In this document: positions 15,258 to 63,719 of the stretch, piece by piece
How the letters are laid out: every line of letters begins with the position of its first letter
Numbering within the stretch: the first letter of the stretch is position 1
Origin: Promethearchaeota archaeon
GTDB taxonomy: Archaea; Asgardarchaeota; Lokiarchaeia; Sigyniarchaeales; SOKP01
NCBI GenBank assembly: GCA_008080765.1
Contig: SHMU01000001.1
Location: forward strand, 1,255 to 65,254
DNA: 64,000 nucleotides
Reading direction: 5' to 3'
Notes under the pieces: model-generated
What the model saw: the letters and a program-made list of their open reading frames with translations, nothing else
Databases searched by the model: none
Told to the model about the DNA's origin: nothing
Made by a program: the position numbers and the translations under genes

Positions 15258-16235
15258 TTAAGCGTCTTTTTTCAAAGAAAAATGAACTTTATTAAACATT
15301 TCTTCAAGATTTCTATAAATATCAAATTGATTATCAAGAAGATTGGAAGCGAGATCATCTAACTCCTCATTATTAAATAAGTTTTTAAGAAGAATTGATT
15401 CGATTCTATCAATCATACTTGCTTTAATTTTGTAGATATAGCGCTGGGTTTTTCTTGTTTTGATCAATTCCGAGAGTTCAAGATATTCTTTATGATCCCA
15501 GATCTTCTCGAGTAAGATATCGATCCCTTCGCCGCTTGCGGAGTTAGTCATCACTACGGGTGGTCGCCAACCGCTCTGAGAAGATGTAGCATCATCAAGC
15601 ATCATTTCAATTTGCACCACAAGATCTTCACCCCCTAAATCTTTTTTATTGACATCATAGATGTCTGCCGTTTCAATGATGCCCGCTTTCTGCATTTGGA
15701 TGGCATCTCCCATGTTCGGTGCCAGCATTACCACTACAGTATATGCTAAATTATATATGTCAAATTCTGATTGTCCAACGCCTACAGTTTCAATTAGAAT
15801 AACATCCATTCCATATGCTTCATATAATAAGGATATATCAAAAACTGCTCGTGACACCCCTCCTTTATATCCTCGAGAAGCTAAGCTCCGCATGAACACG
15901 TTAGGATGGATTGTAATCTCCTTCATTCTCACGCGATCCCCTAAAAAAGCACCTCCACTAAAGGGGGAGGAGGGATCTATAGAAATTATCCCTACAGATT
16001 TCCCTTCTTCAATAATTTTTTCAGTAAGCTTTCCTGTGAGAGTACTTTTACCTACTCCCGGAGAACCAGTCACACCAATGATATATGATTCATTGGAAGT
16101 ATTATTTAAATGCGTAAATATTTCTTCTGCTGAATTAGGATTATTTTCGACAAGAGTAATCAACCGAGCTAATGCTATTTTATCTTTTTGTTTAAATCTC
16201 TGACATAAATCTTCTATATTATACTCTTTTTTCAC
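15258..16235 (-). CDS. meaB: MeaB/ArgK methylmalonyl-CoA mutase-associated G-protein chaperone
   Basis: P-loop GVTGSPGVGKSTL, GDRVRM, ETVGVGQSE and NKKD boxes. Confidence 0.9.
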   Translation of the reverse strand: MKKEYNIEDLCQRFKQKDKIALARLITLVENNPNSAEEIFTHLNNTSNESYIIGVTGSPGVGKSTLTGKLTEKIIEEGKSVGIISIDPSSPFSGGAFLGDRVRMKEITIHPNVFMRSLASRGYKGGVSRAVFDISLLYEAYGMDVILIETVGVGQSEFDIYNLAYTVVVMLAPNMGDAIQMQKAGIIETADIYDVNKKDLGGEDLVVQIEMMLDDATSSQSGWRPPVVMTNSASGEGIDILLEKIWDHKEYLELSELIKTRKTQRYIYKIKASMIDRIESILLKNLFNNEELDDLASNLLDNQFDIYRNLEEMFNKVHFSLKKDA

Positions 16236-47900: not shown

Positions 47901-48612
47901 ACCTCAAATAGAAGTATACGCATCTACTTTAAATTTTGGCGAAATATTCGCCCATATTTCAAATTGTAGATATGACATACTAGTAAGCAAAGAGACGGGT
48001 ATAAAATTAACTGCGGGTGATATTGCCAAGGGGTTATCAAGATTGGGTATTATTAATAATGAACCTCAATGGTTAATAAATATATATGAGAATGAAATTG
48101 GTATTAATATTGAAACGGATGGTGAACAACATGATAATTTTTGGGTATGGTTAAGACTTCAACGATTAGAGGGTGCTGACTTAGCTGATCAAATTGACGT
48201 GATATTGGAGACTCTCGACCCGATGGGTATTAAAATCGGAGATAAGCTTCAAGAATTAACACTCTCTCAAATACAGTCCTACATCAATATGGTTCAAGAA
48301 GATGCAAAACGATTTTTACTGGAGGAATATCGTAGGTGGGAACACTATCGTGATAATGATCAAGATAAACAAAATGCAATTGAAGAAAAGGCTCATTGGT
48401 ATCAAATGAGGATCCCAATATACGGTTGGTTTGAAAATGTCGACAATCGATTTTTCTTATTCTCTATGCAATTTTTAGAAATTCTTGCTAAGGAAGCCGG
48501 AAAAATCGAGGAAGGAGGAAGTCTTAACACTGAATTATTGGAGGAATTAGGATTTAATTGGGATCATTCGGCACATTTTGGACGATATAAAGAGTTTTTC
48601 CTTGATTTATAA
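35998..48612 (+). CDS. giant ORF 2 (4204 aa as called); same frame as ORF 1, probably its continuation
   Basis: Positions 35998 and 16825 are both 1 mod 3. Only TAG (35944..35946) plus 17 sense codons separate the two ORFs. No SD upstream of the ATG. Contains DxDxDG motifs, a TM cluster and a tail with Ubl, HTH and nuclease-like motifs. Confidence 0.8.
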   Translation: MTEFTVYYLLEFDFSGHHYGIVEFGNTSMLNETSIQFELPFGFLPNISDSRAPLYTQFSEQFSPDGDTYRLHYGLYGSNDPDSIIIYNLDQLEEQFKSEIDVLFSDETNEEYYEIDVVFTTPPNEPFTLSYGLKSEYSLGAGFQKIGEPYSESTRLIYTEEEAGQSKIFTDTTNILSPYSFSESALYISLDKQDNKETTLTIFDVPLLYSPSINLTFIIDELGKTMIDQYTSLENILTIDFTYMDSNELYEFSSPSLELQLTPSQLSSYEQGNSYIITYEQDLQALYEILGMDNIDISITISQEGDVNNLPYLLMTQYGYLTDEYIIETHDSMPLDENGEPDYAAITTTPHFYQITSQDLTEAPFNLLSDSQITVALTNLSETELVSLNSDNGKIDFISHGTKKTFTLSEQQGNAVPNLALFINCYDIDMPQYQDGYLDLYYGSGTEVEGEKRSTSTISMTAIGTWLNYRAKVEDNVILGWDSTYDFTDKFLTTDRITVSGKVFYHALANLSESSDEYLNKIQMKEIFDSYTREIEFGIPLPEQYDIADIRAVGHPYEYHLSIQGFPVESTDEYMQYLEADDHDNFPEDEFNQPTNRLPDIDLETGKLNYEVAIDENDSAYLLFFVPLTTIYDLGLLDGNGDIMIDFHAHQTFRDGQDYYIKENYEIDGNNYIEWDYTLVSGHPFKFHPDFNENHYFTVEYSALEWSIMKQMYIHYKTDSFVYQPETFQNVSLFYPGDASIETFGVRNTIPEDQLLDGHILFPSVYVLTETDENSDEYEVRQLKNTAIDSKLVYKTPDPSEPWNYTIDFEQIAIALAAQYPGEHLVNPSFLSVEAHYYSDQWRYELSSTPFNYEYLEKDSNYHLKLTIKNPDGIIIDERYSNETEEIGLNYHTQGFDTYVQAISSNYIYFKEGVIDKNSTIEISYHYKLQPGLQERKHFLISTTPYTQAFNTEYLPGASNSSSAIYRERYRKLSGGSIIAPFDYMLSINETYSLYLSYRLNQRDYFQHEYTTSEGDLTGLEGYRKFGLLDRNLRDTGLVRFAKGAEKECVKVYFYNYRTDLDSTFTSKKYPYIGLSEEQQMQPVYGTTPKIAFLDPSLYEVDSQMVAVSIKQEALELIERMNPKDDKFYISFVPQPLDLELLAYKFQYLTSGDILDSLDVLHWDVPEKDDLDVYPNLDAYYYKDKELSSIERVVCHASELSIYLEDGHSLEFDVEAELQAYDPELLSKIHEGKYASIFIKTNIENLESLESLQIQLIDKDGNILNDYTQIISTEEIDLNDFELHINLPSYADNKLKIIKFIPIFRTDDIYSLENKVGISQYDLIKWDEEDVITNETYPFMFFTLETNLQINASHAGREFAYLFNNRLERIYFPEGVSIEYTKIFDDDGNLLQYALKIPKEHIDPLTGENATFSNEDLLFLKYYSPVERAISLGIGKIYFERAFENNEKSEFMMVNAENQNYFSQFAENNFGSENYWYEQELQITPFDTEHTGTFKTAKLDINLSALEDDAIDGKVPFSHILFTVPHPLYELTINEILILNPSQTHTTEHGSTSSRLWQYSEIQAFAAGSDPAYDEYKFNFTQSVPLFYNESDPAQEWLNYIRIFDEDQNYYSVGLFGDQYQLHYDQENKSFSWNPTFNQYPVYYGMQFEEELMIDPNHTLYIEYCSNESWKEPIVIEDENVDLTSIWTIYDFIHTLRPQYYNWFIDELGYEDNEYSLMDDIDYNVTQYLTEQFTVYDNITEYTHQFDIGNYSFTEDYLNLSLSHVVAITPDFEQILLSDNENYTITFNAEGKNITIESLHPYSYLNEFDTISVVLNFSRGPINSFTELYLTEDFFTSQLNYSDDLTSTFYDTINIYYETFSQGFDGEILFMESSSIITSEDTLFTPISYSSFNAITDQRWVLMNYYSGNFDNFKLYYDDSSIFYQADIDQDGKIDFKHTLDIDRDGKMDIIRYGEESNNGEIIWYTIIQAYERIDSEETHEMEDKKETKWFDINDKNFANYEFNIAELFGVCLTGGLLLPYTLASMMMPIMDYYAMKTLQEEVIRDETIESTYYSIKTDYDRDGLPDYQMDYESYKNVVQYEVTEHHKTLIAAKYQDVFMFLTVWVAKNIASLANEPVYDFVFNDFLTEYHLDHWDFRGLPPTTLAQLPFILSTYRKYYWDMTSEYTDSFTYEQIKIIEYDDQGEISESRIYKDDFRNDEIGNVAQFLSNLIEEHRVTNVETGEQLSISFNPNLPFSRPEDIDWECEVWGVDGVPIKFDSLTVLGGDGLEVIDETNVYQQEIIIRIPNRYSLYNDFRKTAIWQVANMGFADFKVEGILVTPQDGKVYITSDMICLAWGVGKVPGKYFYVDSTGNGFYDTVYIVAATPTDTSGTPTYKVLAIGYNYDGIHDFKPYEKIYPKSRIESNFWMMAIQTNRFDVHWTYQYGNLIREPLLWPTLESLIWNYFKPADHIFEIWKSTALDWNGKSLLYHYIETTKYYEAWFQYGTQYYEDFFEQTFMGTVSSALSVFTQISVQISFGILNVFGAAAIERIANAAGSAIFILTYTLMTKFFMDIDRHEVMSKQRAYTYYPSKYIFKFDPQSMNEKCLYDKLLGDSMATALLGHYGAYYTTAVGESEGFQVTAEVMVTPPNYARMMTGWQGFFEFLGMNLIAPGSHPAIYYGLTFDQMNLDWYALTSELPLYTSPFLLFLNSMLFGPYYMYRQNTLGAVETITMLRTLNHLNTIQATSIGGDPRYRLVNRYEAPYNRILPEKGLYSPVVLSPEWNQYAGNIKGMMYIWALCHDFPSTVGLGSENTLTEVEKLKYKAKFIINPNGFEYPIESIQISLMQQNKRGGIFASSENLISNIQVQEEDFEVIDGTIYFTKTLDEIVAEQYKGYEELLAGIDPEQYLLHYGINIIFSLTIPDTNNETHKLALAQATQFAVMDYFNQYVQAQTIAQIKSEIAYTETLTFWSTIMTTALSYFGGWGATGTGSAIAEVGAEVGKEGVKIIAKEVLKQVLKVVLKTIYEAMKEVLQEVILDAFIEALAEGYFVEILGMSEDAGFWISSLATSLREAGLGPFKLMRKGLTSVMSSISTNLDLHLNLDSIFFKNSKNHIKDLQNSLKNAVEADNFIDQAKLKEEIRQAETELALKQNKLNLIKNIFKGIIMLSLSFKFFGFGFIGAKSLLDIGTSISSYYDNKAEINTISHVMRSENLQFAYESSITNLKRGLSQDIYDQYANTKPHDLRQLENKIELSYAQQQSNDFKTIDSCFDPNRVEKISPPKTPDNIDLRTAKEANAMTPIEKYVDSFFFKDLLNTFPELEALRPRFESIVEWVSKIYNLDFLEKARQNQEASEKKQATESNENTIIVANFISKETTPSEYRSAAYTFRLSGAPHDLAIREIQLDPTLTIEEIKTKVREEYNLEFTEIHLLFNGKYLPNHLRFSELGINPQMDVITVMATQEAAGRNVAAKIFANKIKDLISNNEINKEVANRLVAILNNDKNNWNFEKETLDKFPKLKDLAEEIARKVADGESPQFSPEPICIGPLLSVDESTYRRWLDSSTFLSLQTFETIEYIIDTFYSGTTFGNQMNELLQDYEMRNLLMHGSRLFASSSSISSILIMELERLITYKNEKTGTDYEMIIISHLKSASEHKEFLSEYVIENLYGIEQFKRSNDGRLQRYVMAYLLGVSQASITRWMYGEFDISQSSFITFDNRIQELFGNLIENEGSLYNFYLEFKNLIGNTPQDRCSKTVRDQLLHYLKEGEKKYGPFSNFRADKATRAEISEKNIELFGYAKLFSVDALINSALKDLLQNKDFLDNEVSDALEKGFPGEGRKQLEGLKCFIEEDIERAVKTFRYLLFGLADTSLQKIMTGAEKCHLKVHCTLEKFLRMVYESMQYSSDFQVIDSGPSMILMPTTCIQTRLDKDGNVILDKNGVPMICGEKGFYLAKDLISGRAVCYKHIMRWNEQITAAFFTYYTGIELSKPQIEVYASTLNFGEIFAHISNCRYDILVSKETGIKLTAGDIAKGLSRLGIINNEPQWLINIYENEIGINIETDGEQHDNFWVWLRLQRLEGADLADQIDVILETLDPMGIKIGDKLQELTLSQIQSYINMVQEDAKRFLLEEYRRWEHYRDNDQDKQNAIEEKAHWYQMRIPIYGWFENVDNRFFLFSMQFLEILAKEAGKIEEGGSLNTELLEELGFNWDHSAHFGRYKEFFLDL
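41773..41860 (+). other. paired DxDxDG calcium-binding-type motifs (FG-GAP/EF-hand-like)
   Basis: ADIDQDGKIDFKHTLDIDRDGKMDIIRYG. Related single motifs: DYDRDGLPDY (42172..42201), YVDSTGNGFYDTVY (43039..43080), and in ORF 1 VFDINHDGISEIIRL (19801..19845). Confidence 0.5.
42004..45500 (+). other. membrane-spanning region of the giant protein (about 5-6 hydrophobic helices separated by large loops)
   Basis: Hydrophobic stretches at 42004..42090 (FNIAELFGVCLTGGLLLPYTLASMMMPIM), 43489..43656 (two helices), 44842..44910 and 45430..45500. A weaker one lies near 42289..42340. An amphipathic/coiled-coil segment spans 44920..45425. Confidence 0.55.
46099..46320 (+). other. ubiquitin-like (beta-grasp) domain embedded in the tail
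   Basis: LDPTLTIEEIKTKVREEYNLEFTEIHLLFNGKYLPNHLRFSELGINPQMDVITVM aligns without gaps to ubiquitin [55 protein letters not shown]. About 15 of 55 positions are identical by eye. No C-terminal GG. Confidence 0.55.
46981..47070 (+). other. XRE/Cro-type helix-turn-helix-like motif
   Basis: QRYVMAYLLGVSQASITRWMYGEFDIS matches the l-gvSq-sIsrwe-G pattern. A weaker similar segment (SVDESTYRRWLDSS) lies at about 46590..46630. Confidence 0.45.
47960..48430 (+). other. PD-(D/E)XK (Vsr/DUF559-like) nuclease-like motifs at the C-terminal end
   Basis: CRYDILVSKETG ... IGINIETDGEQHDNF ... HYRDNDQDKQNAIEEKAHWYQMRIPIYGW resembles the y-fDf-v ... iaiEyDGeqH ... rD--K ------ gi-lirIpy layout, with long insertions. 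Confidence 0.35.
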
Positions 48613-49648: not shown

Positions 49649-50050
49649 TTACTTTTTTAGATTATTTTGTATAAAGTCAATGATTTGGGAAGTCATAGTG
49701 CCGGGACCGTAGACGTTTGCCACACCCATAGCCTTTAGTTCTTTAAAATCCTGGGCTGGAATGACTCCTCCTATCAATACCATAAACTCATCTTTTACCC
49801 CCTTTTCCTCTAATTTATCCATGAGCTTTTTAACCCAATTTTTATGCGCGCCCGAATGTATACTAAGTCCTATAATATCCACATCTTCATGAATAGCAGT
49901 TTCCACTATTTGGTCAATATTTTGAAATCCACCAAAAATTAATTCCATACCAGCATCACGTAATGCTCTTGAGACCACTATACCTCCTCGCCAATGACCA
50001 TCTATACCGGGTTTTGACATCAATACCCTAATTTTCTTTTCTTGTTGCAT
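49649..50050 (-). CDS. methylmalonyl-CoA mutase small subunit (B12-binding domain)
   Basis: KIRVLMSKPGIDGHWRGG (DxHxxG B12-binding motif), IIGLSIHSGAH and VLIGGVIP. Start taken at MQQEKK (50050), 17 nt after the large-subunit stop. Confidence 0.9.
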   Translation of the reverse strand: MQQEKKIRVLMSKPGIDGHWRGGIVVSRALRDAGMELIFGGFQNIDQIVETAIHEDVDIIGLSIHSGAHKNWVKKLMDKLEEKGVKDEFMVLIGGVIPAQDFKELKAMGVANVYGPGTMTSQIIDFIQNNLKK

Positions 50051-50067
50051 ATCTCTCACCTGAAATC

Positions 50068-51729
50068 TTAAATTGCTAAAGGTGGCTCCCAAATTCCATA
50101 AATTTCTCTATAAATATCGCATATCTCTCCGACTGTTGCACCTTCTTTGGTAGCCTCCATCATTACAGGCATAACATTCTCCTCTTTTTCAAGGACTTTT
50201 CGGAGTTTATCAAAGATCGACTCTAATTTGGCATTATCACGTTTTTTCTTCAGCGTTTTGATTCGCTCCACTTCAATCTTCATCGCTTCCTCATTTGTGC
50301 GAAATACATCAGTCACATCATCGTATGGAACAGGATATTTATTAACCCCAATACTTATCTCCTCTCCTTTTTCCATTCGTCTCTGGCGTTTATGAAAAGC
50401 ATCTCGCATTTCTTTATATAACCACCCAGTTGAAAGTGCTTTGTCTATCGAACCAGTTCTTTCGATTTCCTCAATATAATCCCATACACGCTCTTCGATC
50501 TCATCAGTAAGCCATTCTACATAATAGGAACCTGCTAAGGGATCTACAGTGTTTACTATACGCGTCTCATCAGAGATCACTTGCTGTGTGCGAAGGGCAA
50601 TTAAAGCAGCCTCCTTTGAGGGAAGACATATTGCTTCATCATAGGAATTTGTATGTAAAGATTGACATCCTCCTAATGTGGCTTCTAATGCTTGGATCGT
50701 AGTCCTGATAATATTTATTTTGGGTAATTGTGCAGTTAAAGAACTTCCGGCGGTTTGTACATGAAATCTAAATTGCATGGAGCGGGGATCTTGAGCATCG
50801 TAGCGATCTTTCATTAATTTCGCCCATATCCTTCTTGCCGCTCTATATTTTGCGATCTCTTCAAAAAAATCCTTATGTGCAGATAAATGAAAAGCTAGTC
50901 GATTTACAAAATCATCTACCGTCCAGCCCCTGGCGATTATATTCTCAATATGAGAACAAGCACTTGCAAAGACAAAACCTAATTCTTGAACGGCATCTAT
51001 TCCTCCTTCCCGATAATTATATCCAGTAAAATTTATAGGATGCCATTTAGGAACATTACCCATAGGTACTGTCCATTCAATAAAATCGCATGCCAATCGA
51101 AGCAAATGATTTGGAGGTACATTTTTATAGGGAATATATCCCACCGTCATGGTCAAAATATCATTTTGAGTGGTTCCCATTAAATTTCGAATGTCATAGC
51201 CTTTCATTTTTGCCATATTGAAATACATCGAGCATACGGGAGCTGAAGTAAAGGGTTCTACAACGAGCGCAACACTGATTTTGTCAATAGGGATATCTTT
51301 GGTAAGCGCAAACATGCTATCTATACAGTATAAGGGCACTCCAGATGTCCCAACTTCTGCTGCACCATCCTCATTTGTAGGGTCAATTCCATTAAAGGTT
51401 AGTGCATCAACCGCTGCGCTAAAACCTGTCTCTCCATGTTTATATAAAAACTTCCATCGCTCATTCGTTTCTTCGGGAGTACCATGTCCCGAAAATAAAC
51501 GCATCGTCCATACACGCCCTCTATACATGTTGGGATAAGGTCCTCGAGTATATGGAGGCTGTCCTGGAAATCCTACCTTTTCTGTATATTCTCCCTTCAC
51601 ATCTAAAGGGGTATATAAACGTTTCACGGGGATTCCAGAATCGGTTTTAAACTCAATATCTCGCTCGCGAGCCTTTTCAAATTTCTTTTCCCAATTTTCT
51701 CGTTCTCTCTTAATTTTCTCAACGTCCAT
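50068..51729 (-). CDS. methylmalonyl-CoA mutase large (catalytic) subunit
   Basis: FPGQPPYTRGPYPNMYRGRVWTMRLFSGHG, FSAAVDALT, HVQTAGSSLTAQ and NIIRTTIQALEATLGG are canonical MCM blocks. Start at MDVEKIK (51729). Confidence 0.9.
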   Translation of the reverse strand: MDVEKIKRERENWEKKFEKARERDIEFKTDSGIPVKRLYTPLDVKGEYTEKVGFPGQPPYTRGPYPNMYRGRVWTMRLFSGHGTPEETNERWKFLYKHGETGFSAAVDALTFNGIDPTNEDGAAEVGTSGVPLYCIDSMFALTKDIPIDKISVALVVEPFTSAPVCSMYFNMAKMKGYDIRNLMGTTQNDILTMTVGYIPYKNVPPNHLLRLACDFIEWTVPMGNVPKWHPINFTGYNYREGGIDAVQELGFVFASACSHIENIIARGWTVDDFVNRLAFHLSAHKDFFEEIAKYRAARRIWAKLMKDRYDAQDPRSMQFRFHVQTAGSSLTAQLPKINIIRTTIQALEATLGGCQSLHTNSYDEAICLPSKEAALIALRTQQVISDETRIVNTVDPLAGSYYVEWLTDEIEERVWDYIEEIERTGSIDKALSTGWLYKEMRDAFHKRQRRMEKGEEISIGVNKYPVPYDDVTDVFRTNEEAMKIEVERIKTLKKKRDNAKLESIFDKLRKVLEKEENVMPVMMEATKEGATVGEICDIYREIYGIWEPPLAI

Positions 51730-52558: not shown

Positions 52559-53707
52559 ATGGATTTTCAATTATCAGATATGCATAAAATGGTCAGAAGA
52601 ACCACCAGAGAATTCGCTGAAGAGTACATTGCTCCCGTTGCAGCAGAAAGCGATCAGAAATCTCGCTTAGATCCTGAAGTGATGGAAGAGATGAAACGCA
52701 TGAAATTTTTCGGGGCAAGCATCCCCCAAGAATACGGTGGAGCAGGATTGGATACGCTTGGATTTGTCATTGCGACAGAAGAGATCGGCAGAATTGATGC
52801 TTCGTGGTCGATAACATTTGCAGTTCCCGCTTCTGTGTGTTCCTATCCCATTTATTTATTTGGAACAGAAGAACAAAAACGAAAATTCCTTCCTGCTTTG
52901 TCTTCGGGTGAAAAATTAGGGGCATTTGTGTTAACCGAAGCGAATGCTGGCTCTGATGCTCAAAGTGTACAACTCAGCGCAACAAAAGACGGAGATGAAT
53001 ACATCTTAAACGGCAGTAAAATCTTTGCTACTAATGGAGGCATTGCAAAAACGTTATTAGCAGTGACAACCACGGGAACAGTAGGAAGAAGAAAAGAGCT
53101 TACGATGTTTATCGTTGACACGGATACTCCGGGATATTCTGTAGGCGTAAGAGAGAAGAAGCTAGGTGTGAGAGCTTCCAATACATCTGAATTAGTATTT
53201 CAAGATGTCCGAGTTCCTGAGGAAAACATTTTGGGAAAACGAGGGGATGGATTCAAATTAACATTAGCCATCTTAGATTATGGAAGAATCTTGATGGCAG
53301 CTCAAATAGTAGGGTTAGGACAAGCGTGCTTAGAGAAATCGGTAAAATATGCCAATGAACGTGTTCAATTCGGCAGACCAATCGGAAGCTTCCAAGGAAT
53401 ACAATATAAAATTGCAGATATGGCAACTGAAATTGAAGCCTCTCGATTATTAACCTATAAAGCTGCCCATCTATGTGATATTGGACAAGATTATGGATTA
53501 ATAGGCTCAATGGCCAAGTTATATGCGTCCGAGGCCACTATGAGAGCAGCTCACCAAGCCGTGCAAATCCATGGCGCATATGGGCTTACCAAGTCATATG
53601 ACGTTGAAAGATACTTTCGAGACGCAAAAATGGCAGAAATATATGAGGGAACCTCGGAGATTCAGCGAATGGTCATCGGGAGTAGCATGCTTCGAAAATA
53701 TCAGTGA
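52559..53707 (+). CDS. acyl-CoA dehydrogenase (short/medium-chain type)
   Basis: GAFVLTEANAGSDA, FATNGG, QFGRPIGSFQGIQYKIADMAT and YEGTSEIQRMVI motifs. Confidence 0.9.
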   Translation: MDFQLSDMHKMVRRTTREFAEEYIAPVAAESDQKSRLDPEVMEEMKRMKFFGASIPQEYGGAGLDTLGFVIATEEIGRIDASWSITFAVPASVCSYPIYLFGTEEQKRKFLPALSSGEKLGAFVLTEANAGSDAQSVQLSATKDGDEYILNGSKIFATNGGIAKTLLAVTTTGTVGRRKELTMFIVDTDTPGYSVGVREKKLGVRASNTSELVFQDVRVPEENILGKRGDGFKLTLAILDYGRILMAAQIVGLGQACLEKSVKYANERVQFGRPIGSFQGIQYKIADMATEIEASRLLTYKAAHLCDIGQDYGLIGSMAKLYASEATMRAAHQAVQIHGAYGLTKSYDVERYFRDAKMAEIYEGTSEIQRMVIGSSMLRKYQ

Positions 53708-53804
53708 TTATATCACTCTCATTTTTCAAAAATTTTAATATAGAGTAATGAATTTTACATCATAATTAGATAATTTGTATTCTTATTGATAAAGTCTCTT
53801 GAAA

Positions 53805-54608
53805 ATGAAAATATTTGTATGTGTGAAACAAGTTCCTGCCGTGGAAAAAATTAAAATCGATCCCAAAACCAATTGCCTCATTAGAAAAGGGATTCCCTCG
53901 ATGATAAATCCCATGGATAAAAATGCAATTGAATTAGCAGTTCAATTAAAGGAAACCCATAACGCAGAGACTATTGGACTCACGATGGGACCGCCACAAG
54001 CTGAAGAGGTATTGCGACAAGCATTAGCGATGGGCATTGACGAGGCTTATTTATTAACCGATAGCAAATTCGCTGGGGCGGATACACTTGCGACTTCCTA
54101 TACCTTATCCTTGGCAATTAAAAAAATCTTGAAGCAAAAGAAAGTTGAGGAGGATTATTTAATTATTTGCGGCAATCAAGCCATTGATGGTGAAACAGGG
54201 CAGACAGGACCAGAATTAGCCGAAGAATTAGGAATCCCCCAAATTACCTATGTGGAAAATTTTCAGTTGCAGGGAAAAAAAGCCATAATTGAACGCTCCT
54301 TTATCTCAGAAGAAGTAGTAGTGATAGAAACAAAACTACCTTTACTCCTATCGGTAGTACGCGATTTAAATGACCCGAAATATCCTACGATGGCTGGAAT
54401 TGTTAATGCATATCATAAAGAGATTACCCATTGGAATGCTACCGATCTTTCTGCGGATAAAAAGAAAATAGGATTACCCGGGTCTAGAATAATTGTATGG
54501 AATCTATTTAGCCCCGAAAGAAAGGGAGAACTCACTTTGTTAGAAGGGACTCCGGAAAAAATATCTAAAGAACTCTGTGATTATCTACAAAAAGATAAGG
54601 TCTTATAG
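53805..54608 (+). CDS. etfB: electron transfer flavoprotein beta subunit
   Basis: MKIFVCVKQVPA ... NPMDKNAIELAV ... AGADTLATSY ... LIICGNQAIDGETGQTGP. Ends in TAG. Confidence 0.9.
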   Translation: MKIFVCVKQVPAVEKIKIDPKTNCLIRKGIPSMINPMDKNAIELAVQLKETHNAETIGLTMGPPQAEEVLRQALAMGIDEAYLLTDSKFAGADTLATSYTLSLAIKKILKQKKVEEDYLIICGNQAIDGETGQTGPELAEELGIPQITYVENFQLQGKKAIIERSFISEEVVVIETKLPLLLSVVRDLNDPKYPTMAGIVNAYHKEITHWNATDLSADKKKIGLPGSRIIVWNLFSPERKGELTLLEGTPEKISKELCDYLQKDKVL

Positions 54609-54857
54609 GACTATATATTGATGAAACAAAGTATTCGAGAAATACTTACTTTTTCTCTTTCATTAAATATATAATTCTATATAATTTGAGCAAAATCTGG
54701 CTTTTATAATTTAATATCTTATAATGTTTAAGATATTTGTAATTTTGATTCAAACTTATGTATTCAAGATGGAGAAAGTTGAACCTAATTCTTTTTATAT
54801 GATGATCATCATAATTTTAGTAATAATTTCATAAAAAACTATTGTGGTAAAACACAA

Positions 54858-54869
54858 TTCAAACGTGAA
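54858..54869 (+). promoter_or_regulatory. inverted-repeat motif TTCA-N4-TGAA (TTCAAACGTGAA) upstream of paralog A
   Basis: The same motif with one central change (TTCAATCGTGAA) occurs at 56970..56981 upstream of paralog B. Confidence 0.25.
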
Positions 54870-54874
54870 AAGAA

Positions 54875-56644
54875 ATGAAAATCACAAAAAAAACTGCATT
54901 CGCTTTAATGACTTCATTGATACTAGTATCTTTGTTCGCCACTTTTCCCGCTTCTTCGGGTGCACAAATTCCTTATCCACTTGCCGCTTCATCTATCCAA
55001 TCTTCACAAGAGTCTTTAAGCATTAAAGAAGAGTTCACAACTCGATTTGGGCATTATGTTGACGAGCCGTATTGGTCAATTATTTTTGATTTTGCAGGAG
55101 AAAAATTAGTCGAAGATTTCAACCCCGGTCCTTATAGTGGGGATGTTATTGGAGGTGAAGGAGAGACTGATAATGATACTCAAACAGATGCGAATTTCTA
55201 TATGGGATGGAATAATTTACAAAATGTTCATACCTATTATTTTGCTCTACAAAACTATACGTGGAATAGTACAGATCCAATAGCCTATGGTTGTGCTCCA
55301 TATCAATATTTCTTTCAACATTTTAATATTCCAACAACTAAGACTCATGTATTTACTTTAAATAAGTTTTTAGGTTTATTAGCATACCAAGATAACTTCA
55401 CTGCGGGGAATCAAACAATACCAGACGAAACAGACGAATTATATATAGGATGGACTCAATTTGGAGAATTCCATAAATTTATTATTAATTATATATTTAA
55501 TGTGTCTACTACTCCTGTTGATCCCTGGTTTCTTATTGACGAATCTAAGCAAGCTACAGCCACACCAATTGCAATGAATGAAACCTCTCCCGGAATATAC
55601 GAATTTGGAATTTCATACCAAAATATTTTTGTTCTCTGGCAAAAGCTAGAAGTCGAACAAGGATTAGGGTATGATAGTGTAGAATTGAGCCAAATTGTAA
55701 ACAATTGTAGCGCATTTGGTATGTTCTCAAGTATTAATTTTACTTTCCAAATTTCAAGCAGAAATGTAGGAGGATATCTTGAAGTAAATACCACTACTGA
55801 ATATGATATTGGAGAATTAGATGCATTATGGATTATGAATGAAAATGGTACTGATGTAAGTCCATTTGGAGGAGATAATTTTACTGTATCAATCCCCGGA
55901 GAAGGAAGTGTAGATATTGGATACTACAATACAAGCAGTTCTATCGCAAGTAGATTGGATGGAAATGAAAGTTTATCAGTTCCTGGGTTTGGACTTGCTG
56001 TTATCAATTCAGCAAACATCGCTGTAGTGAAAATGAAAAGCTTTACGCTATTTGGAATTGAATGGTTCCAATATCCGGATACTGAAGCATCTGGACTTGA
56101 AAACTTTACCGATCAAGCGGGAAATCCATTAGGAGAAGTCACAACAAATATAACTGAGGCGGGATATAACCAGTCTGGTATCAGAGTGTTTACTATAGAT
56201 TTTGCTTCAAAACCTAATTATACTCTGAATGGAACGGAAGAATTAGAAGCTCCCTCATTAGTATTGGCAAATGATCAAGTACTTACAGAGAATATTACTG
56301 GAATTTTTGATGAAGCTGCATTGCTCTCTACACTCTATTTTATTATAGCAGCAGCGGGTAATCCCATAACTGGTGTTTTTACTGGTATTGAAGTTATCAG
56401 ACAATTTATGGAAAATAGGTTCTACTATTTGACATGCTTTCCAAAATGGAGCGGGGCAACCATCAATCAAGATCCTACGTTCTCTGTGTTTGTACCTCCC
56501 AGCACTCCTGATTTTCCTTTGGAACTTCTTGGCGGAGACGGAGGTGGAGGCTTTCCTGTATGGATACTCCCAATTGTCTTTGGTGTCGGTATTGTGAGTG
56601 CTGCGGTAATTGGTATCATAATTTGGAGAAAGAAACGCAAATAA
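54875..56644 (+). CDS. surface glycoprotein-like protein, paralog A (589 aa): signal peptide, sequon-rich ectodomain, C-terminal TM plus basic tail
   Basis: MKITKKTAFALMTSLILVSLFATFPASSGA. 19 N-x-S/T sequons by hand count. C-terminus GGGGFPVWILPIVFGVGIVSAAVIGIIIWRKKRK. About half the residues are identical to paralog B in alignable blocks. Confidence 0.75.
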   Translation: MKITKKTAFALMTSLILVSLFATFPASSGAQIPYPLAASSIQSSQESLSIKEEFTTRFGHYVDEPYWSIIFDFAGEKLVEDFNPGPYSGDVIGGEGETDNDTQTDANFYMGWNNLQNVHTYYFALQNYTWNSTDPIAYGCAPYQYFFQHFNIPTTKTHVFTLNKFLGLLAYQDNFTAGNQTIPDETDELYIGWTQFGEFHKFIINYIFNVSTTPVDPWFLIDESKQATATPIAMNETSPGIYEFGISYQNIFVLWQKLEVEQGLGYDSVELSQIVNNCSAFGMFSSINFTFQISSRNVGGYLEVNTTTEYDIGELDALWIMNENGTDVSPFGGDNFTVSIPGEGSVDIGYYNTSSSIASRLDGNESLSVPGFGLAVINSANIAVVKMKSFTLFGIEWFQYPDTEASGLENFTDQAGNPLGEVTTNITEAGYNQSGIRVFTIDFASKPNYTLNGTEELEAPSLVLANDQVLTENITGIFDEAALLSTLYFIIAAAGNPITGVFTGIEVIRQFMENRFYYLTCFPKWSGATINQDPTFSVFVPPSTPDFPLELLGGDGGGGFPVWILPIVFGVGIVSAAVIGIIIWRKKRK

Positions 56645-56664
56645 TTTAAAAACTAATCTTCTTA

Positions 56665-56672
56665 TTTTTTTT
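56665..56672 (+). terminator. oligo-T tract (T8) after paralog A
   Basis: CTTATTTTTTTTATTT, 21 nt after the stop. Confidence 0.3.
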
Positions 56673-56969
56673 ATTTAGATTTTATATCAATTTTTTACTT
56701 CATTTTATTATTAGAGATCTTTTTTTGTAATTCATATTATTTCACATTCTTATAATATCTTCTTAGAAATGAGAAAAGTGTTAAGGGAAAACTGAGAGTT
56801 TTCTTAGAGTAGGTTTTTTAATTTTTTGTATTTTATTAATCTCTTGATTAGAGTTCCTTTTAATTGAGTTAATTCAATTCCAAAACTAATCTTATAAATT
56901 TTATCCCCATTCTTTTTATAAAGAGCTTTATTATAAGGTCTCAAGAAGTCTATTTAATTGAAAATAGAT

Positions 56970-56981
56970 TTCAATCGTGAA
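56970..56981 (+). promoter_or_regulatory. inverted-repeat motif TTCAATCGTGAA upstream of paralog B
   Basis: Counterpart of 54858..54869. Ends 28 nt before the ATG at 57010. Confidence 0.25.
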
Positions 56982-57009
56982 ATCAAATAAAAAATAAAAA
57001 GGAAAGATA

Positions 57010-58737
57010 ATGAAATATTATAAAAAGACAGCATTTGCACTTATAGCGACGGTAATTTTAGTTTCATTTGTATCTACTTTTCCAGCTTCATCAGGTGTCT
57101 ACATACCATCTCCTATTGCCCCCTCATCCATTAAAAGCTCACAGAATCCAATCGCCGATGCGTTTAAATCTCATTTTGGACATGATCTTACCGAGGAATA
57201 TTGGTCAATATTGTATGATTTAACGGGGAACCATACCGAAGTCGATTACAATCCGGGCCCCTATAATGGGAGTCGGAGTGAAGGAAATACAGATGATATA
57301 CCCGAAGTTGATACCAAATTCTTTATTGGATGGAACAATCTTGGAAATATTCAGAGTCTTTATTGTGCAATGGATAATTTTTCGTGGAATGTAAATGACA
57401 ACAATAATACGCTCTATGGTTGTGCTCCGTATCAATTTTTTCTACAGCACTTCACTTCACCTTTTGCACCCAATAATCATATATTTGTATTAAATAAATT
57501 TCTAGGATTACTGGCATATAGAGATAATCTTACCGATGGAATTGAGGATCTTCCAGATGAAAACGACACACTTTACATAGGATGGCCGCAATATTCGGAA
57601 TATCATAAATTTTTGATTAATGAGCTTCTTAATGCAACAGGAGTTGCTCCATGGTATCTCGTGAATGAATCAAAAGTCGGTGATGCCGTACCTATTCCGA
57701 TGACTAAAATTTCTCCTGGAGTCTATGAATTTGGAATGTCATATCAAAATATTTTTATCTTGTGGCAAAGTATTTCAGTAGACGAGGGTCTAAATAATGA
57801 AACGACTAATATTGATATTTTAAGCAATTGTTCAGCGTTTTCACTCTTATCATACATTAATTTTACATTTAGAATTTCAATTACTAATACATTACTCGGC
57901 ACCCAAGTAGTTACTACCACAGAATATGATATAGGAACCCTCGATTCTCTTTATGTAATTGGAGATAATGGGACTATTGCGAACAATTTTGAGGGAACCA
58001 GCTTTAATATTACTATTCCACTTGCACTTGATGTAGATATTGGTCATTATAACACGACTTCTGCTATTGGAAAGAGATTGGATGGAAATAAAACATTAAA
58101 TGTACCTGGCTTTGGATTATCGGTTATTAATTCAGCTCACGTAGCAGTCATAAGGCTAATTGAGATCGGCAACTTTCAAATACCATCCATAGTTGATCTG
58201 ACTAATTTTACAGATGAGATCGGTAACAAACTGGGCAATGCTACGCAAAATATCTCCCGAGCGGGGATTAGTCATGGAAGTGGATCATATACCATTGATT
58301 TTGCCTCTAAACCCACATATACATGGGATAATGGCACTCATAGTGCAACGTATGATGCTCCAACAAGAGTATTAAGAAATACCTTATTTGAGCTCAATAC
58401 CACTACATTTTTAGACTTAGCAGCAATCAATGTAATTGCTATGTTGATATTGAGGGCGCAAGGAACCGGCTGGCAAGGCTGGCTGGCAGCATTAACAATA
58501 ATTGGACAATTATACAGCAATCAATTTCTATACATTACCAGCTTTCCAAAATGGTCTGGAGCGCAAATTACTCAAGATCCGACATTCTCGGTATTTGTTC
58601 CCAATATAATCCCCCCCTTACCTTCGCAAGAAGAAGGTGGACTGCCATGGGGAATCATTCTACCGGTGATTTTTATTATAGGAATATGTAGTGCGGTAGC
58701 CATAGGTGCCATCATTTGGAAAAGGAAACGCAAATAA
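57010..58737 (+). CDS. surface glycoprotein-like protein, paralog B (575 aa)
   Basis: MKYYKKTAFALIATVILVSFVSTFPASSGV. 20 sequons by hand count. Blocks shared with paralog A: YGCAPYQ, LNKFLGLLAY, YEFGxSYQNIF, TTTEYDIG, VPGFGL, IDFASKP and FPKWSGAxIxQDPTFSVFVP. C-terminus LPWGIILPVIFIIGICSAVAIGAIIWKRKRK. Confidence 0.75.
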   Translation: MKYYKKTAFALIATVILVSFVSTFPASSGVYIPSPIAPSSIKSSQNPIADAFKSHFGHDLTEEYWSILYDLTGNHTEVDYNPGPYNGSRSEGNTDDIPEVDTKFFIGWNNLGNIQSLYCAMDNFSWNVNDNNNTLYGCAPYQFFLQHFTSPFAPNNHIFVLNKFLGLLAYRDNLTDGIEDLPDENDTLYIGWPQYSEYHKFLINELLNATGVAPWYLVNESKVGDAVPIPMTKISPGVYEFGMSYQNIFILWQSISVDEGLNNETTNIDILSNCSAFSLLSYINFTFRISITNTLLGTQVVTTTEYDIGTLDSLYVIGDNGTIANNFEGTSFNITIPLALDVDIGHYNTTSAIGKRLDGNKTLNVPGFGLSVINSAHVAVIRLIEIGNFQIPSIVDLTNFTDEIGNKLGNATQNISRAGISHGSGSYTIDFASKPTYTWDNGTHSATYDAPTRVLRNTLFELNTTTFLDLAAINVIAMLILRAQGTGWQGWLAALTIIGQLYSNQFLYITSFPKWSGAQITQDPTFSVFVPNIIPPLPSQEEGGLPWGIILPVIFIIGICSAVAIGAIIWKRKRK

Positions 58738-58754
58738 ATTTTAACTATTTATTA

Positions 58755-58761
58755 TTTTTTT
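58755..58761 (+). terminator. oligo-T tract (T7) after paralog B
   Basis: ATTATTTTTTTCTAAC, 18 nt after the stop. Confidence 0.3.
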
Positions 58762-59256
58762 CTAACATATTTTATCCTTGTTCTATCATTTCTTATCTTT
58801 TTTCTATCATTTTTCTATTTGTTTATATGTAAAGATCTTTTTTTATTCTTAATCTCTCTTTCATATTCCATTTAAATATTGATATAAAGAAATTTTTAGC
58901 AAGAATATAGTTCGCTAATCCTTGACCTTATTATGTGTAATTATGCAATTCAGATTTATAAGAGAACAAAAGGTAATTTTTATTTTTTCTCTCACTTTAC
59001 ATAACTTAACATAATTTTTATCTGATTCATCATTTAGGAAAAATTAAGTGTTTTTAAAAACAATTTAAAAAATACAATTAACATACCTTTAGTTTAATAG
59101 AATTGTAAGGAGAGTTATGAGAAGTATTCGTATTTAAAAGAATCGTTTATGTTTTACACCTCAAATTCTCAAATAAAATTGTAAAGATAAAAAATTTTGC
59201 ATCAAGAATAACAATACTATGATAATTTAATGTAAAATGAAAGGTGAGAAATAGTC

Positions 59257-60252
59257 ATGAGTCAAAATCAAGGAGTTATGGTTGTAGGAGAGCATTTTAA
59301 AAACGAAATTCAAGATGTGGTCTATGAATTATTAGGAAAGGGTAGAAAATTGGCGGACACCTTAAATGTGAACTTATCGATAGTATTCCTCGGTTCCGAT
59401 TTAGATAAAAAATTGGAAGATTTGGGAAGCTATGGTGTTGATGAAGTGATTTATGTAAAATCTCCTGTATTCAGAGATTATTATTCGGATTTGTATGTGG
59501 ATACGCTAATAGATACCATTCAAGAAAGAAAACCAGAAATTTTATTAATTGCTGCGACCCCCACGGGGCGGGATTTTGCTCCTCGCATCTCAAAACGATT
59601 AAATGTTGGGCTCACCGCTGATTGTACGCAATTGGAAATAGAAGAGGGTAGCAGGACGTTATTGCAAACATGTCCCACATACGGGGGCAATCTTATGGCA
59701 ACCATGAAAGCAATCGATAGCTATCCTCAAATGAGTACTGTGGCATGTGGTATTTTTGAGCCCGTAAGAATCCCAAATAAGAAAGCAGAGATTATCATCA
59801 TAAAAAAAGATATTAAAAAAGAAGATTCAGTATCCAAAATTTTAAAATCAATTGAAAAGGAAAAACAGACCGTCAATTTATCTGAGGCCGAAGTTGTCGT
59901 AGCGGGAGGAAGAGGGCTTGGCAGTAAAGAAAACTTTAAGATGATTGAGGAGCTTGCTGAAGTACTTAATGGCGAAATTGCGGGCTCCAGAGTTCCAGTA
60001 GAATTAGGATGGATGGAAAAAGAGCGTCAAATAGGACAAACTGGTGCTATTGTCTCACCAAAATTATACATTGCATGCGGTATTTCTGGAGCTATTCAAC
60101 ATTTAGTCGGAATGGAAAACTCAGATGTTATTGTTGCCATCAACAAGGACCCAAACGCATCAATATTTGAGGTCGCTCATTATGGGATCGTGGGAGATGT
60201 AAATAAAATTATTCCCGAGTTAATTAAAGAACTTAAAAAACGAAATGAATAA
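59257..60252 (+). CDS. etfA: electron transfer flavoprotein alpha subunit
   Basis: AATPTGRDFAPRISKRL, VVAGGRGLG, GSRVPVELGW, QIGQTGAIVSPKLYIACGISGAIQH and VAINKDPNASIF. GGTGA SD upstream. Confidence 0.9.
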   Translation: MSQNQGVMVVGEHFKNEIQDVVYELLGKGRKLADTLNVNLSIVFLGSDLDKKLEDLGSYGVDEVIYVKSPVFRDYYSDLYVDTLIDTIQERKPEILLIAATPTGRDFAPRISKRLNVGLTADCTQLEIEEGSRTLLQTCPTYGGNLMATMKAIDSYPQMSTVACGIFEPVRIPNKKAEIIIIKKDIKKEDSVSKILKSIEKEKQTVNLSEAEVVVAGGRGLGSKENFKMIEELAEVLNGEIAGSRVPVELGWMEKERQIGQTGAIVSPKLYIACGISGAIQHLVGMENSDVIVAINKDPNASIFEVAHYGIVGDVNKIIPELIKELKKRNE

Positions 60253-62585: not shown

Positions 62586-63719
62586 TCAAAAATGTTGTTC
62601 TAAGTATGATGAGATAACTTGATAGAGACTTTCAATTGTTATCTTCCCTCTATTTGTATTGGCTTCCTTAAAATTGAAAATGCAAAAGGGGCAAAGCGTA
62701 AATAAAGTCTTTGTACCCATTAATTCAGCTTCTTTTATTCTTTTCTCACCTATTTTTCGCGCCAGCTCGGGATTAATAATCCTCATACCTCCATCAGCAC
62801 CGCAGCATAATCCTTTTTCTTTAAAATAAGTAAATTCTTTTAATGTATACCCAAGAATGTCTAAGATTTTTCTAGGCGGCTTTATTATACCAAAAGGTCT
62901 TGTTAAATGACATGAATCATGAAATGCTATGATATTCTCTGAACTATTATGCTTTTTTTCTTGTAATTTTCCATTAGTTTGAAATGCTTCTAATTTTTTG
63001 GCTATGATTTCAATGATATGATAAAACTTTTGGGAGTCGGGATAGTGCTTTTTAAAGAATATATAACATCCAGCGCATGCGCAAATTATTTTATCAAATT
63101 TCTCAAATTCTGCCAGATTTTTATCAATTACTTCTTGAGCAGAATCATGATCTCCCGTGTTATAGATGAAATATCCGCAGCAATATTCATTAGGAAGAAG
63201 GCAATAATCTATTTCTAATTTCTTCATGATATTAAGAATTTCATTGCGCATTGAATGTAAGCGATAGCCCAACATGCAGCCTAAATGAAGTAAAGTTTTA
63301 GAATCGTCAGAAGAATTGAAAATCTTTCCCTTTATTGACTTATTTGGTATTTTGTTGAGGCGGGAATCTGAATTATTAAATGGATTACCCATCGTTAAAA
63401 TATTAGTAATGAGCTGAGATTGTTTTTGATTGCGAGCACCATAAATGGAAAATATTTGGTTGCGTGCCCAATCAAATAAGTCAATTAATGGTAAATTTTG
63501 AGGGCAGTGTTCTTGACATGCCTCACATTTTGTACAATAAAAGACGGTATTAATATGCTCTTGACTGAGTTTCTGATCATTTATGAGCAATTTTATAGCT
63601 TCAAGTTTTTCTAAAGCACTATAATTTTTAAAATATAAGTGAATTGAACAAAAAGAGGTGCATTCTTTACATGCTATACATTGTTCCAAAGTAAGAAGAA
63701 TTTGTTCCTTTTTCATCAT
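62586..63719 (-). CDS. Fe-S oxidoreductase with two 4Fe-4S ferredoxin motifs and two CCG domains (HdrD/GlcF-like)
   Basis: CIACKECTSFC and CTKCEACQEHCP cluster motifs. CCG-type motifs CCGYF and CCGADGG. No TM helix seen. Confidence 0.8.
   Translation of the reverse strand: MMKKEQILLTLEQCIACKECTSFCSIHLYFKNYSALEKLEAIKLLINDQKLSQEHINTVFYCTKCEACQEHCPQNLPLIDLFDWARNQIFSIYGARNQKQSQLITNILTMGNPFNNSDSRLNKIPNKSIKGKIFNSSDDSKTLLHLGCMLGYRLHSMRNEILNIMKKLEIDYCLLPNEYCCGYFIYNTGDHDSAQEVIDKNLAEFEKFDKIICACAGCYIFFKKHYPDSQKFYHIIEIIAKKLEAFQTNGKLQEKKHNSSENIIAFHDSCHLTRPFGIIKPPRKILDILGYTLKEFTYFKEKGLCCGADGGMRIINPELARKIGEKRIKEAELMGTKTLFTLCPFCIFNFKEANTNRGKITIESLYQVISSYLEQHF

Follow-up and report, generated by a model that had tools for sequence, protein, structure and literature searches.

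The described proteins closest to the pair considered here are exported archaeal surface proteins that carry a three-part signal--that is, a short motif, a hydrophobic helix and a basic cluster--at their C-terminal end. They include the Loki-CTERM and Heimdall-CTERM proteins and the PGF-CTERM substrates of archaeosortase A, such as the surface layer (S-layer) glycoprotein of Haloferax volcanii, in which a Sec signal and an N-glycosylated ectodomain are combined with a PGF-like motif, a helix and a basic tail. In haloarchaea the PGF-CTERM signal is cleaved and a lipid anchor is put in its place; the PGF-CTERM/archaeosortase A system is reportedly treated in work by Haft et al. in 2012 and by Abdul Halim et al. 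in 2013. This report concerns two paralogous genes, termed here P1 and P2, which lie between etfB and etfA, the genes for the two subunits of an electron transfer flavoprotein (ETF), within a stretch of 64,000 nucleotides from a Lokiarchaeial Promethearchaeota archaeon (GenBank assembly GCA_008080765.1, contig SHMU01000001.1; this whole stretch is termed the window). Their predicted layout is that of the PGF-CTERM substrates, from which they differ, however, in that their PGF-like motif is degenerate and that their ectodomains show neither sequence nor fold similarity to those of the substrates.

Two groups of Asgard surface proteins also invite comparison, in both cases by their published descriptions. 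The Hodarchaeales S-layer proteins KTGHC1_P6247 and KTGSC1_P0196 are Asgard-wide, surface-exposed and N-glycosylated (10.1101/2025.02.26.640444), as is found or predicted for P1, P2 and their relatives, and the 'badge' protein LOKIASV2_13140 is a β-sheet-rich surface protein of no known fold (10.1101/2025.07.22.663070); the former, however, are described as tetrameric with a pore and the latter as 'very large', whereas members of the family to which P1 and P2 belong have about 450-600 aa. N-x-S/T serves as the N-glycosylation site in cultured Promethearchaeota (PMC11284389; 10.1101/2025.02.26.640444). As for the cell surface of cultured Asgard archaea, cryo-electron tomography reveals no ordered S-layer: Ca. 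L. ossiferum is bounded by one membrane that bears 'small unordered surface densities' (PMC9834061; 10.64898/2026.02.13.705702), Nerearchaeum shows globular densities about 12 nm off the membrane (10.1101/2025.07.22.663070), and Ca. Y. umbracryptum shows an amorphous layer (10.1101/2025.11.06.686947). H. volcanii has an S-layer glycoprotein, whereas Lokiarchaeia are without an ordered S-layer lattice (PMC9834061).

Because they combine a predicted export signal, a predicted anchor, an excess of sequons and kinship to CTERM-sorted proteins, P1 and P2 most likely are cell-surface glycoproteins, and the idea of envelope glycoproteins put forward in the initial annotation appears reasonable. That they are independent surface-coat genes, inserted at the etfB|etfA junction without any tie to ETF function, is the reading judged probable here. 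In itself, the splitting of the operon is a curiosity. The family, for its part, is of use as a lead on the cell surface of Lokiarchaeia, inasmuch as it supplies concrete, testable candidates for the unordered densities seen there, including an ortholog in the cultured Ca. L. ossiferum.

Two sequon-rich paralogs between etfB and etfA

Within the window, etfB (the ETF beta or small subunit, 269 aa; 53799..54608, + strand; Pfam ETF 1.1e-37) ends at 54608 and etfA (the alpha or large subunit, 331 aa; 59257..60252, + strand; Pfam ETF 1.5e-37 and ETF_alpha 6.8e-37) starts at 59257, leaving a gap of 4648 nt. The gap holds P1 (589 aa; 54875..56644) and its paralog of the same architecture, P2 (575 aa; 57010..58737), both likewise on the + strand, so that the gene ends and the two co-oriented genes originally listed are exactly as claimed. 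Both ETF subunits are present and intact, with their ETF and ETF_alpha (FAD-binding) domains, and EtfB also matches the EtfB-type models of NCBIfam under their cutoffs; what is missing is the adjacency of the two genes, which is typical of EtfAB without defining it; oligo-T tracts and promoter-like blocks lie in the gap. The cluster opens with a gene for an acyl-CoA dehydrogenase (ACAD; 52559..53707, + strand; Pfam Acyl-CoA_dh_N, _M and _1), its order being acad-etfB-(insert)-etfA. No credible small ORFs were found in the spacers of the etfB-etfA interval, and an Rfam scan of 54400-59400 gave no match.

Over their whole length the two proteins are 50% identical (BLASTP E = 0), which bears out their proposed paralogy. 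In each, a basic and hydrophobic signal-like stretch at the N-terminus (about aa 6-28) is followed by PASSG, and the protein closes with a transmembrane (TM) helix and a basic tail; these features had been ascribed to both proteins and are found in both. The parts of P1 are the signal-like region (aa 1 to about 29), the predicted ectodomain (about 45-545), a Gly-rich linker (546-562), the TM helix (about 563-586) and the tail RKKRK; in P2 the helix spans about aa 549-572 and the tail KRKRK stands at the very end. In both proteins three residues lie past the predicted TM segment. Copies identical to P1 and P2, from a Promethearchaeota metagenome-assembled genome, both carry the database label 'exported protein of unknown function'.

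Sequons were counted as N-x-S/T where x is not P, and the number expected was derived from the amino-acid composition. There are 20 in P1 (3.4 per 100 aa; expected 5.9, z = 6.6) and 20 in P2 (3.5 per 100 aa; expected 7.4, z = 5.4); an earlier hand count of 19 and 20 was therefore right for P2 and off by one for P1. The two giant ORFs encoded elsewhere in the window reach 1.4 and 0.74 sequons per 100 aa, and values for the flanking enzymes are 0.2-0.9, so that the density in P1 and P2 is 2.5 to 5 times that in the giant ORFs. Both proteins, in other words, show the excess of sequons on a predicted exported domain that is looked for in archaeal N-glycoproteins.

An AlphaFold2 model of P1, built from an alignment of 36 sequences (pLDDT 84.4, pTM 0.81), predicts an ectodomain rich in β-structure, in which several strands reach 16-21 residues and a hydrophobic helical hairpin (aa 477-513) lies against a large β-sheet, as well as a Gly-rich linker modeled with low confidence and the TM helix. 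Searches with P1 and P2 returned nothing that would place this ectodomain: there was no match in Pfam or, above cutoff, in NCBIfam; a sequence-profile search of the PDB gave only noise (E about 0.9); and Foldseek with the full-length P1 model reached at best E = 4e-3 against the PDB, with query-normalised TM-scores of at most 0.20, found no match among viral predicted structures, and gave a best E of 2.2 for a separately modeled membrane-proximal module. No ligand-binding fold was recognized in these structure searches. (Several candidates came up and were set aside. Copper amine oxidases, AlgE and leukocidins appeared among the Foldseek matches in the PDB, none of them significantly; the glycosylated lysosomal membrane protein GLMP, which was the best target-side match with a TM-score of 0.34 and a probability of 0.33, was treated as noise; and the idea of a class II fusogen or fusexin was dropped, there being no such match in either the PDB or the viral structure libraries.) The view that P1 and P2 belong to no known family thus stands for the ectodomain, where profile and structure searches came up empty, but not for the C-terminus, where a degenerate, sub-threshold Loki-CTERM signal can be discerned. 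Judging from their sequences, P1 and P2 may be described as divergent examples of those archaeal surface glycoproteins that are anchored at the C-terminus and belong to the Asgard CTERM type, their ectodomain being hitherto undescribed.

Sorting signals, relatives and the cell surface

The Loki-CTERM signal is represented by NCBIfam model NF033507, which has 27 positions and a cutoff of 19.9 bits, and the Heimdall-CTERM signal by NF045529; such models describe only the last ~27 residues of a protein and not its ectodomain. On NF033507 the tail of P1 scores 13.2 bits (E = 0.085) and that of P2 15.9 bits (E = 0.012), both below the cutoff, whereas P0157, which served as a positive control and which NCBI names 'Loki-CTERM sorting domain-containing protein', scores 25.4 bits. 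Among 74 family tails, 23 score at about the threshold, 15 of them for Heimdall-CTERM and 8 for Loki-CTERM, and many have a clear I-P-G-[FY]-[ED] motif right before the helix, similar to the PGF-CTERM signal on which archaeosortases act. This motif is retained as GIPGF in members of the sister group (P0009 and P0011) but is worn in P1 to GGGFP (within GGGGFP) and in P2 to GGLPW (within EEGGLPWG), and it is likewise degenerate in the orthologs found at the etf locus. The helix and the basic cluster after it, by contrast, do stand at the extreme C-terminus of both proteins, P1 ending in ...FPVWILPIVFGVGIVSAAVIGIIIWRKKRK and P2 in ...LPWGIILPVIFIIGICSAVAIGAIIWKRKRK. Among the window ORFs of at least 150 aa--that is, within these 64 kb only--there is no archaeosortase- or exosortase-like gene.

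A search for close homologs yielded 40. Those with a name are all assigned to Promethearchaeota or Lokiarchaeota, among them Ca. Lokiarchaeum ossiferum, in which the strain B-35 ortholog P0200 is NEF87_001491. When 1.84 billion cluster representatives were searched with the family profile, 212 relatives were found at E <= 1e-3, 41 of these at E <= 1e-30; the named ones that were sampled belong to Heimdallarchaeota, Njordarchaeota and Asgardarchaeia. So far, then, the family is small and, wherever a source is named, confined to Asgard archaea. (NEF87_001491 carries the label DUF2330 in UniRef, which looks like an annotation artifact: current Pfam gives no DUF2330 match even at E up to 10. In the library of papers that was searched, there was no mention of NEF87_001491 or of Loki-CTERM.)

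Nearly all members of the family are built alike: after a signal peptide come an ectodomain of 400-550 aa, a single helix at the C-terminal end and a basic tail that is short. Enrichment in sequons is highest, at z = 4 to 7, in the clade to which P1 and P2 belong; four sequons are nearly universal, being present in 35, 33, 32 and 29 of 36 members, and the others vary between lineages. In P1 the conserved sites are N127, N288, N352 and N425. The underlying alignment (A1) covers P1, P2 and 34 homologs over their full length; in it, residues F522, P523, W525, G527, I530, D533, P534 and F536 are invariant; they make up a membrane-proximal family motif, F-P-x-W-x-G-x-x-I-x-x-D-P-x-F, which is present in both P1 and P2. 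The part of the profile that includes this motif (about 370-546) also sits behind other N-terminal regions, namely in P0140, which has a CBM96 domain, and in P0147, a protein of 1242 aa; the distant relatives P0157 and P0199 also bear on this recurrence. Such recurrence suggests that the membrane-proximal part is a separable stalk or anchor module. A Pfam scan of ten distant representatives detected no extra domain other than the CBM96 domain of P0140, and a permissive scan of the 36 members found only winged helix-turn-helix (wHTH) domains, in four fused forms.

These four homologs (P0004, P0005, P0008 and P0012; 730-741 aa) share the ectodomain and TM helix of P1 and P2 but are extended on the cytoplasmic side by about 165 residues, in which two wHTH domains score above Pfam cutoffs (HTH_HVO_0163_N, 4.7e-20, and HTH_24/MarR); in a fifth, P0025, the tail instead is rich in Q and P and ends in a zinc ribbon. 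They raise the main rival explanation, which is that the ectodomain is a ligand-binding sensor and that P1 and P2 are tail-less receptors, co-receptors or decoys of a one-component signaling family of the ToxR/CadC kind. Three of the four fused forms are the sister group of the P1-type clade (86% bootstrap), and on locus L011 two of them form a tandem pair. Like the membrane-tethered ToxR/CadC regulators, the fused paralogs connect an extracellular to a DNA-binding domain through a single TM helix within one chain, but in reversed order, the extracellular domain being N-terminal and the DNA-binding domain C-terminal; P1 and P2 have no DNA-binding domain at all and, with only three residues beyond the TM segment, would be unable to signal by themselves. 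Most of the family (about 100 members) likewise ends in no more than a short basic tail or a CTERM signal, the structure searches offer no ligand-binding fold, and a very high and fast-changing sequon density fits a shielding or coat protein better. A sensor role for P1 and P2 is accordingly rated as rather unlikely. The fused paralogs themselves hint at a novel kind of transmembrane regulator in archaea. Their genes (L003 8001-10226; L011 6873-9065 and 10024-12216) lie in a conserved neighborhood of FlpD, Fer4, molybdopterin oxidoreductase and MFS genes, and each copy is preceded by an uncharacterized gene of about 190-227 aa without a Pfam match.

According to a second alternative, the two proteins are S-layer subunits in the strict sense, which are processed by an archaeosortase-like enzyme and lipid-anchored and which may belong with the Hodarchaeales HC1/SC1 homotetramer or with the Nerearchaeum 'badge' family. 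It draws on the many relatives in which I-P-G-[FY]-[ED], a hydrophobic stretch and a basic tail match Loki- or Heimdall-CTERM, on the presence of the family in several Asgard classes, which fits the phrase 'conserved across many Promethearchaeota lineages' (10.1101/2025.02.26.640444), and on the very long β-strands predicted in the model, which recall the 'very large β-sheet domains' of the badge protein (10.1101/2025.07.22.663070). P1 and P2 themselves, however, score below the CTERM cutoffs and have a degenerate motif; in their sister paralogs the same helix precedes a large cytoplasmic domain and hence must be a permanent anchor there; cultured Lokiarchaeia lack an ordered S-layer (PMC9834061; 10.64898/2026.02.13.705702); and the badge protein differs in size, as already noted. 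This alternative is regarded as improbable. The sorting signal of the clade that includes P1 and P2 may have degenerated into a permanent membrane anchor, permitting the addition of cytoplasmic domains in some of its members.

The suggestion in the initial annotation that the two proteins are candidates for an S-layer or sheath goes beyond the evidence, both because the coat of cultured Lokiarchaeia is amorphous (PMC9834061) and because the wHTH-fused paralogs make a receptor module possible. The family is nonetheless a reasonable candidate component of that amorphous coat. A bolder proposal, which is viewed as unlikely, is that an Asgard-specific new fold forms the main building block of an amorphous coat that has replaced the S-layer and at the same time serves as the sensor of membrane-tethered wHTH factors; if this were true, a single family would tie the surface coat, which is widely proposed to mediate syntrophic contacts relevant to eukaryogenesis, to gene regulation.

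History of the etfB-etfA junction

The state of the junction differs among related loci. Both P1 and P2 lie between etfB and etfA in the window; a single P1-type gene lies there in L001, L002 and L006; a single P2-type gene (P0006, 66% identical to P2) in L010; and a P2-type remnant of 161 aa without a signal peptide in L012 (913-1551), which comes from the same sample as L010 and was the only new locus added by a metagenome scan with etfA. In the nearest unsplit relatives, L007 and L008, nothing intervenes and etfA follows 14 nt after etfB, so that the pair in the window is indeed interrupted. L001, L002 and L006 share the order CoA-transferase (two genes), MeaB, B12-binding subunit, mutase, ACAD, EtfB, family gene, EtfA, SDR; their EtfA is 75-78% identical to that of the window, and the window ACAD is 90-91% identical to its orthologs in L001 and L002. 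The split therefore is not peculiar to this genome but is inherited across at least six lineages. The initial annotation had supposed that its interpretation would fall if relatives had the same split with intervening genes of known function; the arrangement does recur, but not with intervening genes of known function. Identities of ACAD, of EtfB and of EtfA each separate the split from the unsplit group, which fits a single event.

A neighbor-joining tree places P1 with the genes of L001 and L002 (91% bootstrap) and P2 with P0006 of L010 (100%). P2 groups with the sole occupant of the junction in L010, and in three lineages a P1-type gene alone remains; the duplication that gave rise to P1 and P2 is therefore, on this sequence evidence, older than the divergence of the split lineages, and the copies were then differentially lost. 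Hence the two genes are paralogs that stand side by side, as described at the outset, but not the product of a recent tandem duplication, which both the tree and the single P2-type gene of L010 rule out. In L012, intergenic DNA and the promoter block have been kept while about 1.1 kb, corresponding to the first ~363 codons of the family gene, has been lost, and the visible parts of etfB and etfA beside the decayed gene are intact. The remnant is 64% identical to P2, yet its C-terminal tail (GFPVWILPIVFGVGI..GVIIW) is P1-like, which suggests either gene conversion between the paralog types or retention of an ancestral tail.

The gene insertion coincides, at the same junction, with a difference in EtfA. 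In the unsplit relatives, EtfA (L007 7803-9002, 399 aa; L008 2215-3411, 398 aa) begins with a 2x[4Fe-4S] ferredoxin domain of about 65 aa that has two CxxCxxCxxxCP motifs; with this domain, and with a gene directly following etfB, it may be compared with the ferredoxin-domain EtfA of the CarE/LctC type in Acetobacterium woodii. The EtfA of the window and of every split lineage lacks the domain and starts at what in L007 is an internal linker Met; moreover, its gene in the window is 4.6 kb from that of the other subunit, probably under a separate promoter. A tblastn search of the etf spacers found no relic of the ferredoxin domain, and an in-frame likeness just upstream of the etfA start (ER*EIV vs ERPEID) is too short to rely on. 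We read the absence of the domain as a loss that accompanied insertion at the junction, the alternative being a gain in the other branch. Among the split lineages, the divergence of EtfA and of EtfB is some three times that of ACAD (about 25% vs 9%, in a small sample), whereas for the unsplit pair L007/L008 the ratio of ETF to ACAD divergence is about 1.1-1.5; the faster divergence may reflect relaxed or altered constraint after the split and the domain loss. The locus thus offers a clean, datable example of an archaeal operon that was split and yet persists, with insertion, absence of the ferredoxin domain, in-place duplication and differential loss. Its consequence for ETF can be measured in the roughly threefold divergence of EtfA and EtfB relative to ACAD, and the understanding of ETF biochemistry is unchanged.

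Non-coding DNA at the junction is conserved in several places. An A/T block (ATATATA.CTATATAATTG; 54666..54690, + strand) about 200 nt upstream of P1, the 9-mers of which are common to the window, L002 and L010 at like distances upstream of the family gene, is a candidate promoter or regulatory element. A promoter-like block (GAGAAAGTTGAACCTAATTCTTTTTATAT) with the TATA-like TTTTTATA (54773..54801, + strand) lies 76 nt before the P1 ATG, and a copy of it (..ATCCCCATTCTTTTTATAA; 56894..56922, + strand) lies 90 nt before the P2 ATG; positions 54775-54799 and 56896-56920 are 80% identical (repeat D10). More broadly, a block of ~29 nt (…ACCTAATTCTTTTTAWA) occurs 65-110 nt upstream of P1, of P2 and of the genes in L001, L002 and L010, the spacers being otherwise divergent. 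The 12-mer core ATTCTTTTTAWA is present three times in the window versus 0.28 expected, and two of these three occurrences are upstream of P1 and P2. Past the P1 stop by 21 nt is an oligo-T tract, T8 (56665..56672, + strand), and past the P2 stop by 18 nt another, T7 (58755..58761, + strand). Oligo-T tracts terminate archaeal transcription, and these two are candidate terminators; the A/T-rich upstream regions and the oligo-T runs initially noted for P1 and P2 can be read in the sequence for both genes.

Lastly, a block of ~35-40 nt upstream of etfA (TTTTTATTT..CTC.C.TTTAC/AATAA.TTAA.A; 58975..59015, + strand) is a candidate etfA promoter. It is found 100-280 nt upstream of etfA in five split lineages (the window, L001, L002, L006 and L010), with many invariant columns, whichever type of paralog precedes it and within spacers that otherwise cannot be aligned. 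Neither the promoter-like block nor the etfA block matched Rfam, and scans for sigma-70 promoters and intrinsic terminators, models that are not applicable to archaea, stayed at background level. Because conserved upstream blocks occur together with oligo-T runs, the arrangement suggests that three separate transcription units follow etfB and that the ETF subunits probably are no longer co-transcribed.

An imperfect 29-nt direct repeat (54641-54669 vs 58975-59003, 76% identical) flanks the insert, its right copy coinciding with the etfA upstream block; it could be either the footprint of an insertion or a chance match in A/T-rich DNA. Together with the tendency of the family to move and duplicate within genomes, this repeat is what speaks for regarding the 4.6-kb insert as the recent cargo of a mobile element or virus. 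The interval, however, holds no integrase, transposase or tRNA gene, the GC content of the insert is that of the adjoining genes, the arrangement is common to lineages whose EtfA is only ~75% identical, the P1 model has no viral predicted-structure match, and the repeat, being A/T-rich, may be fortuitous. Recent mobile cargo is accordingly considered highly improbable, and recent horizontal transfer is ruled out by GC content and by the age of the arrangement.

The position of the insert might also be under selection, as would be the case if the two surface proteins were coupled to ACAD and ETF, say by sensing a hydrophobic substrate or capturing it for the acyl-CoA pathway. It has been kept in six diverged lineages, none of which shows complete loss of the insert, and the hydrophobic helical hairpin that the P1 model packs against the large β-sheet (aa 477-513) could be seen in this light. 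Such retention, though, is trivially explained if the etfA promoter is now in the 3' flank of the insert. Because more distant family members lie in unrelated gene neighborhoods, because the family gene of L012 has decayed to a remnant without a signal peptide between flanks that were kept, and because P1 and P2, with 3-4 Cys each and no cofactor motifs, give no hint of a redox role, a functional coupling to ETF is not favored; the putative upstream block and oligo-T tract that each gene has of its own also speak against it, and the coupling is deemed quite improbable.

On the favored reading, that of independent surface-coat genes, P1 and P2 would be long-diverged paralogs encoding exported, single-pass, C-terminally anchored surface proteins, each with a β-rich ectodomain of ~500 aa that is predicted to be heavily N-glycosylated and each transcribed as a unit of its own, from a TATA-like upstream block to an oligo-T tract past the stop. 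In an ancestor of one Lokiarchaeial subclade a family member would have been inserted between etfB and a ferredoxin-bearing etfA; the inserted gene would then have been duplicated in place, and descendants would have kept one copy, the other copy, both (as in the window) or a remnant, while etfA came to be transcribed from its own conserved upstream element. The proteins would be held by a C-terminal helix that descends, in degenerate form, from a PGF-like Loki-CTERM signal, and would contribute to an amorphous glycoprotein coat over the single Lokiarchaeial membrane.

Several points weigh against this reading. The export, expression and glycosylation of family members are predictions, and the promoter and terminator roles are drawn from sequence conservation. 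In P. syntrophicum only a solute-binding protein was found to be heavily glycosylated (PMC11284389). P1 and P2 fall short of the Loki-CTERM cutoff and of an intact PGF-like motif, and the cytoplasmic wHTH domains of their closest paralogs suggest that their role lies in signaling and is not purely structural. That the ferredoxin domain was lost, as opposed to gained, is argued from parsimony and from the weak in-frame similarity upstream of the etfA start. Finally, every split lineage examined keeps at least a gene remnant at the site, which leaves room for some local dependency.

Other features of the window

Downstream of the cluster, on the - strand, lies a gene for a 4Fe-4S dicluster protein with two CCG domains (HdrD/GlcF-like; 62586-63719). 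A gene of this kind is also found downstream in L001, and L002 is without it at that position; the protein is a plausible electron-accepting partner of the window ETF system.

The window was said to contain a second metabolic operon interrupted by envelope genes, and by synteny this holds: the genes for MeaB (15258-16235, - strand) and for the B12-binding subunit of the mutase (49649-50092, - strand) are direct neighbors in L001, L002 and L007 but are separated in the window by two giant ORFs of 6373 and 4204 aa and an ORF of 174 aa (16825-49247). Neither giant ORF has a terminal TM helix with a basic tail. The first (ORF1) has Laminin_G_3 (ConA-like lectin) domains and weak Ig-like and CBM96 matches. 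The sole Pfam match of the 4204-aa ORF (35998-48612) is to the ubiquitin family PF00240, at 29.9 bits against a gathering cutoff of 25.4 bits; it spans aa 3384-3443 (about 46147-46326 in the window) and places a ubiquitin-like fold inside a giant Asgard protein.

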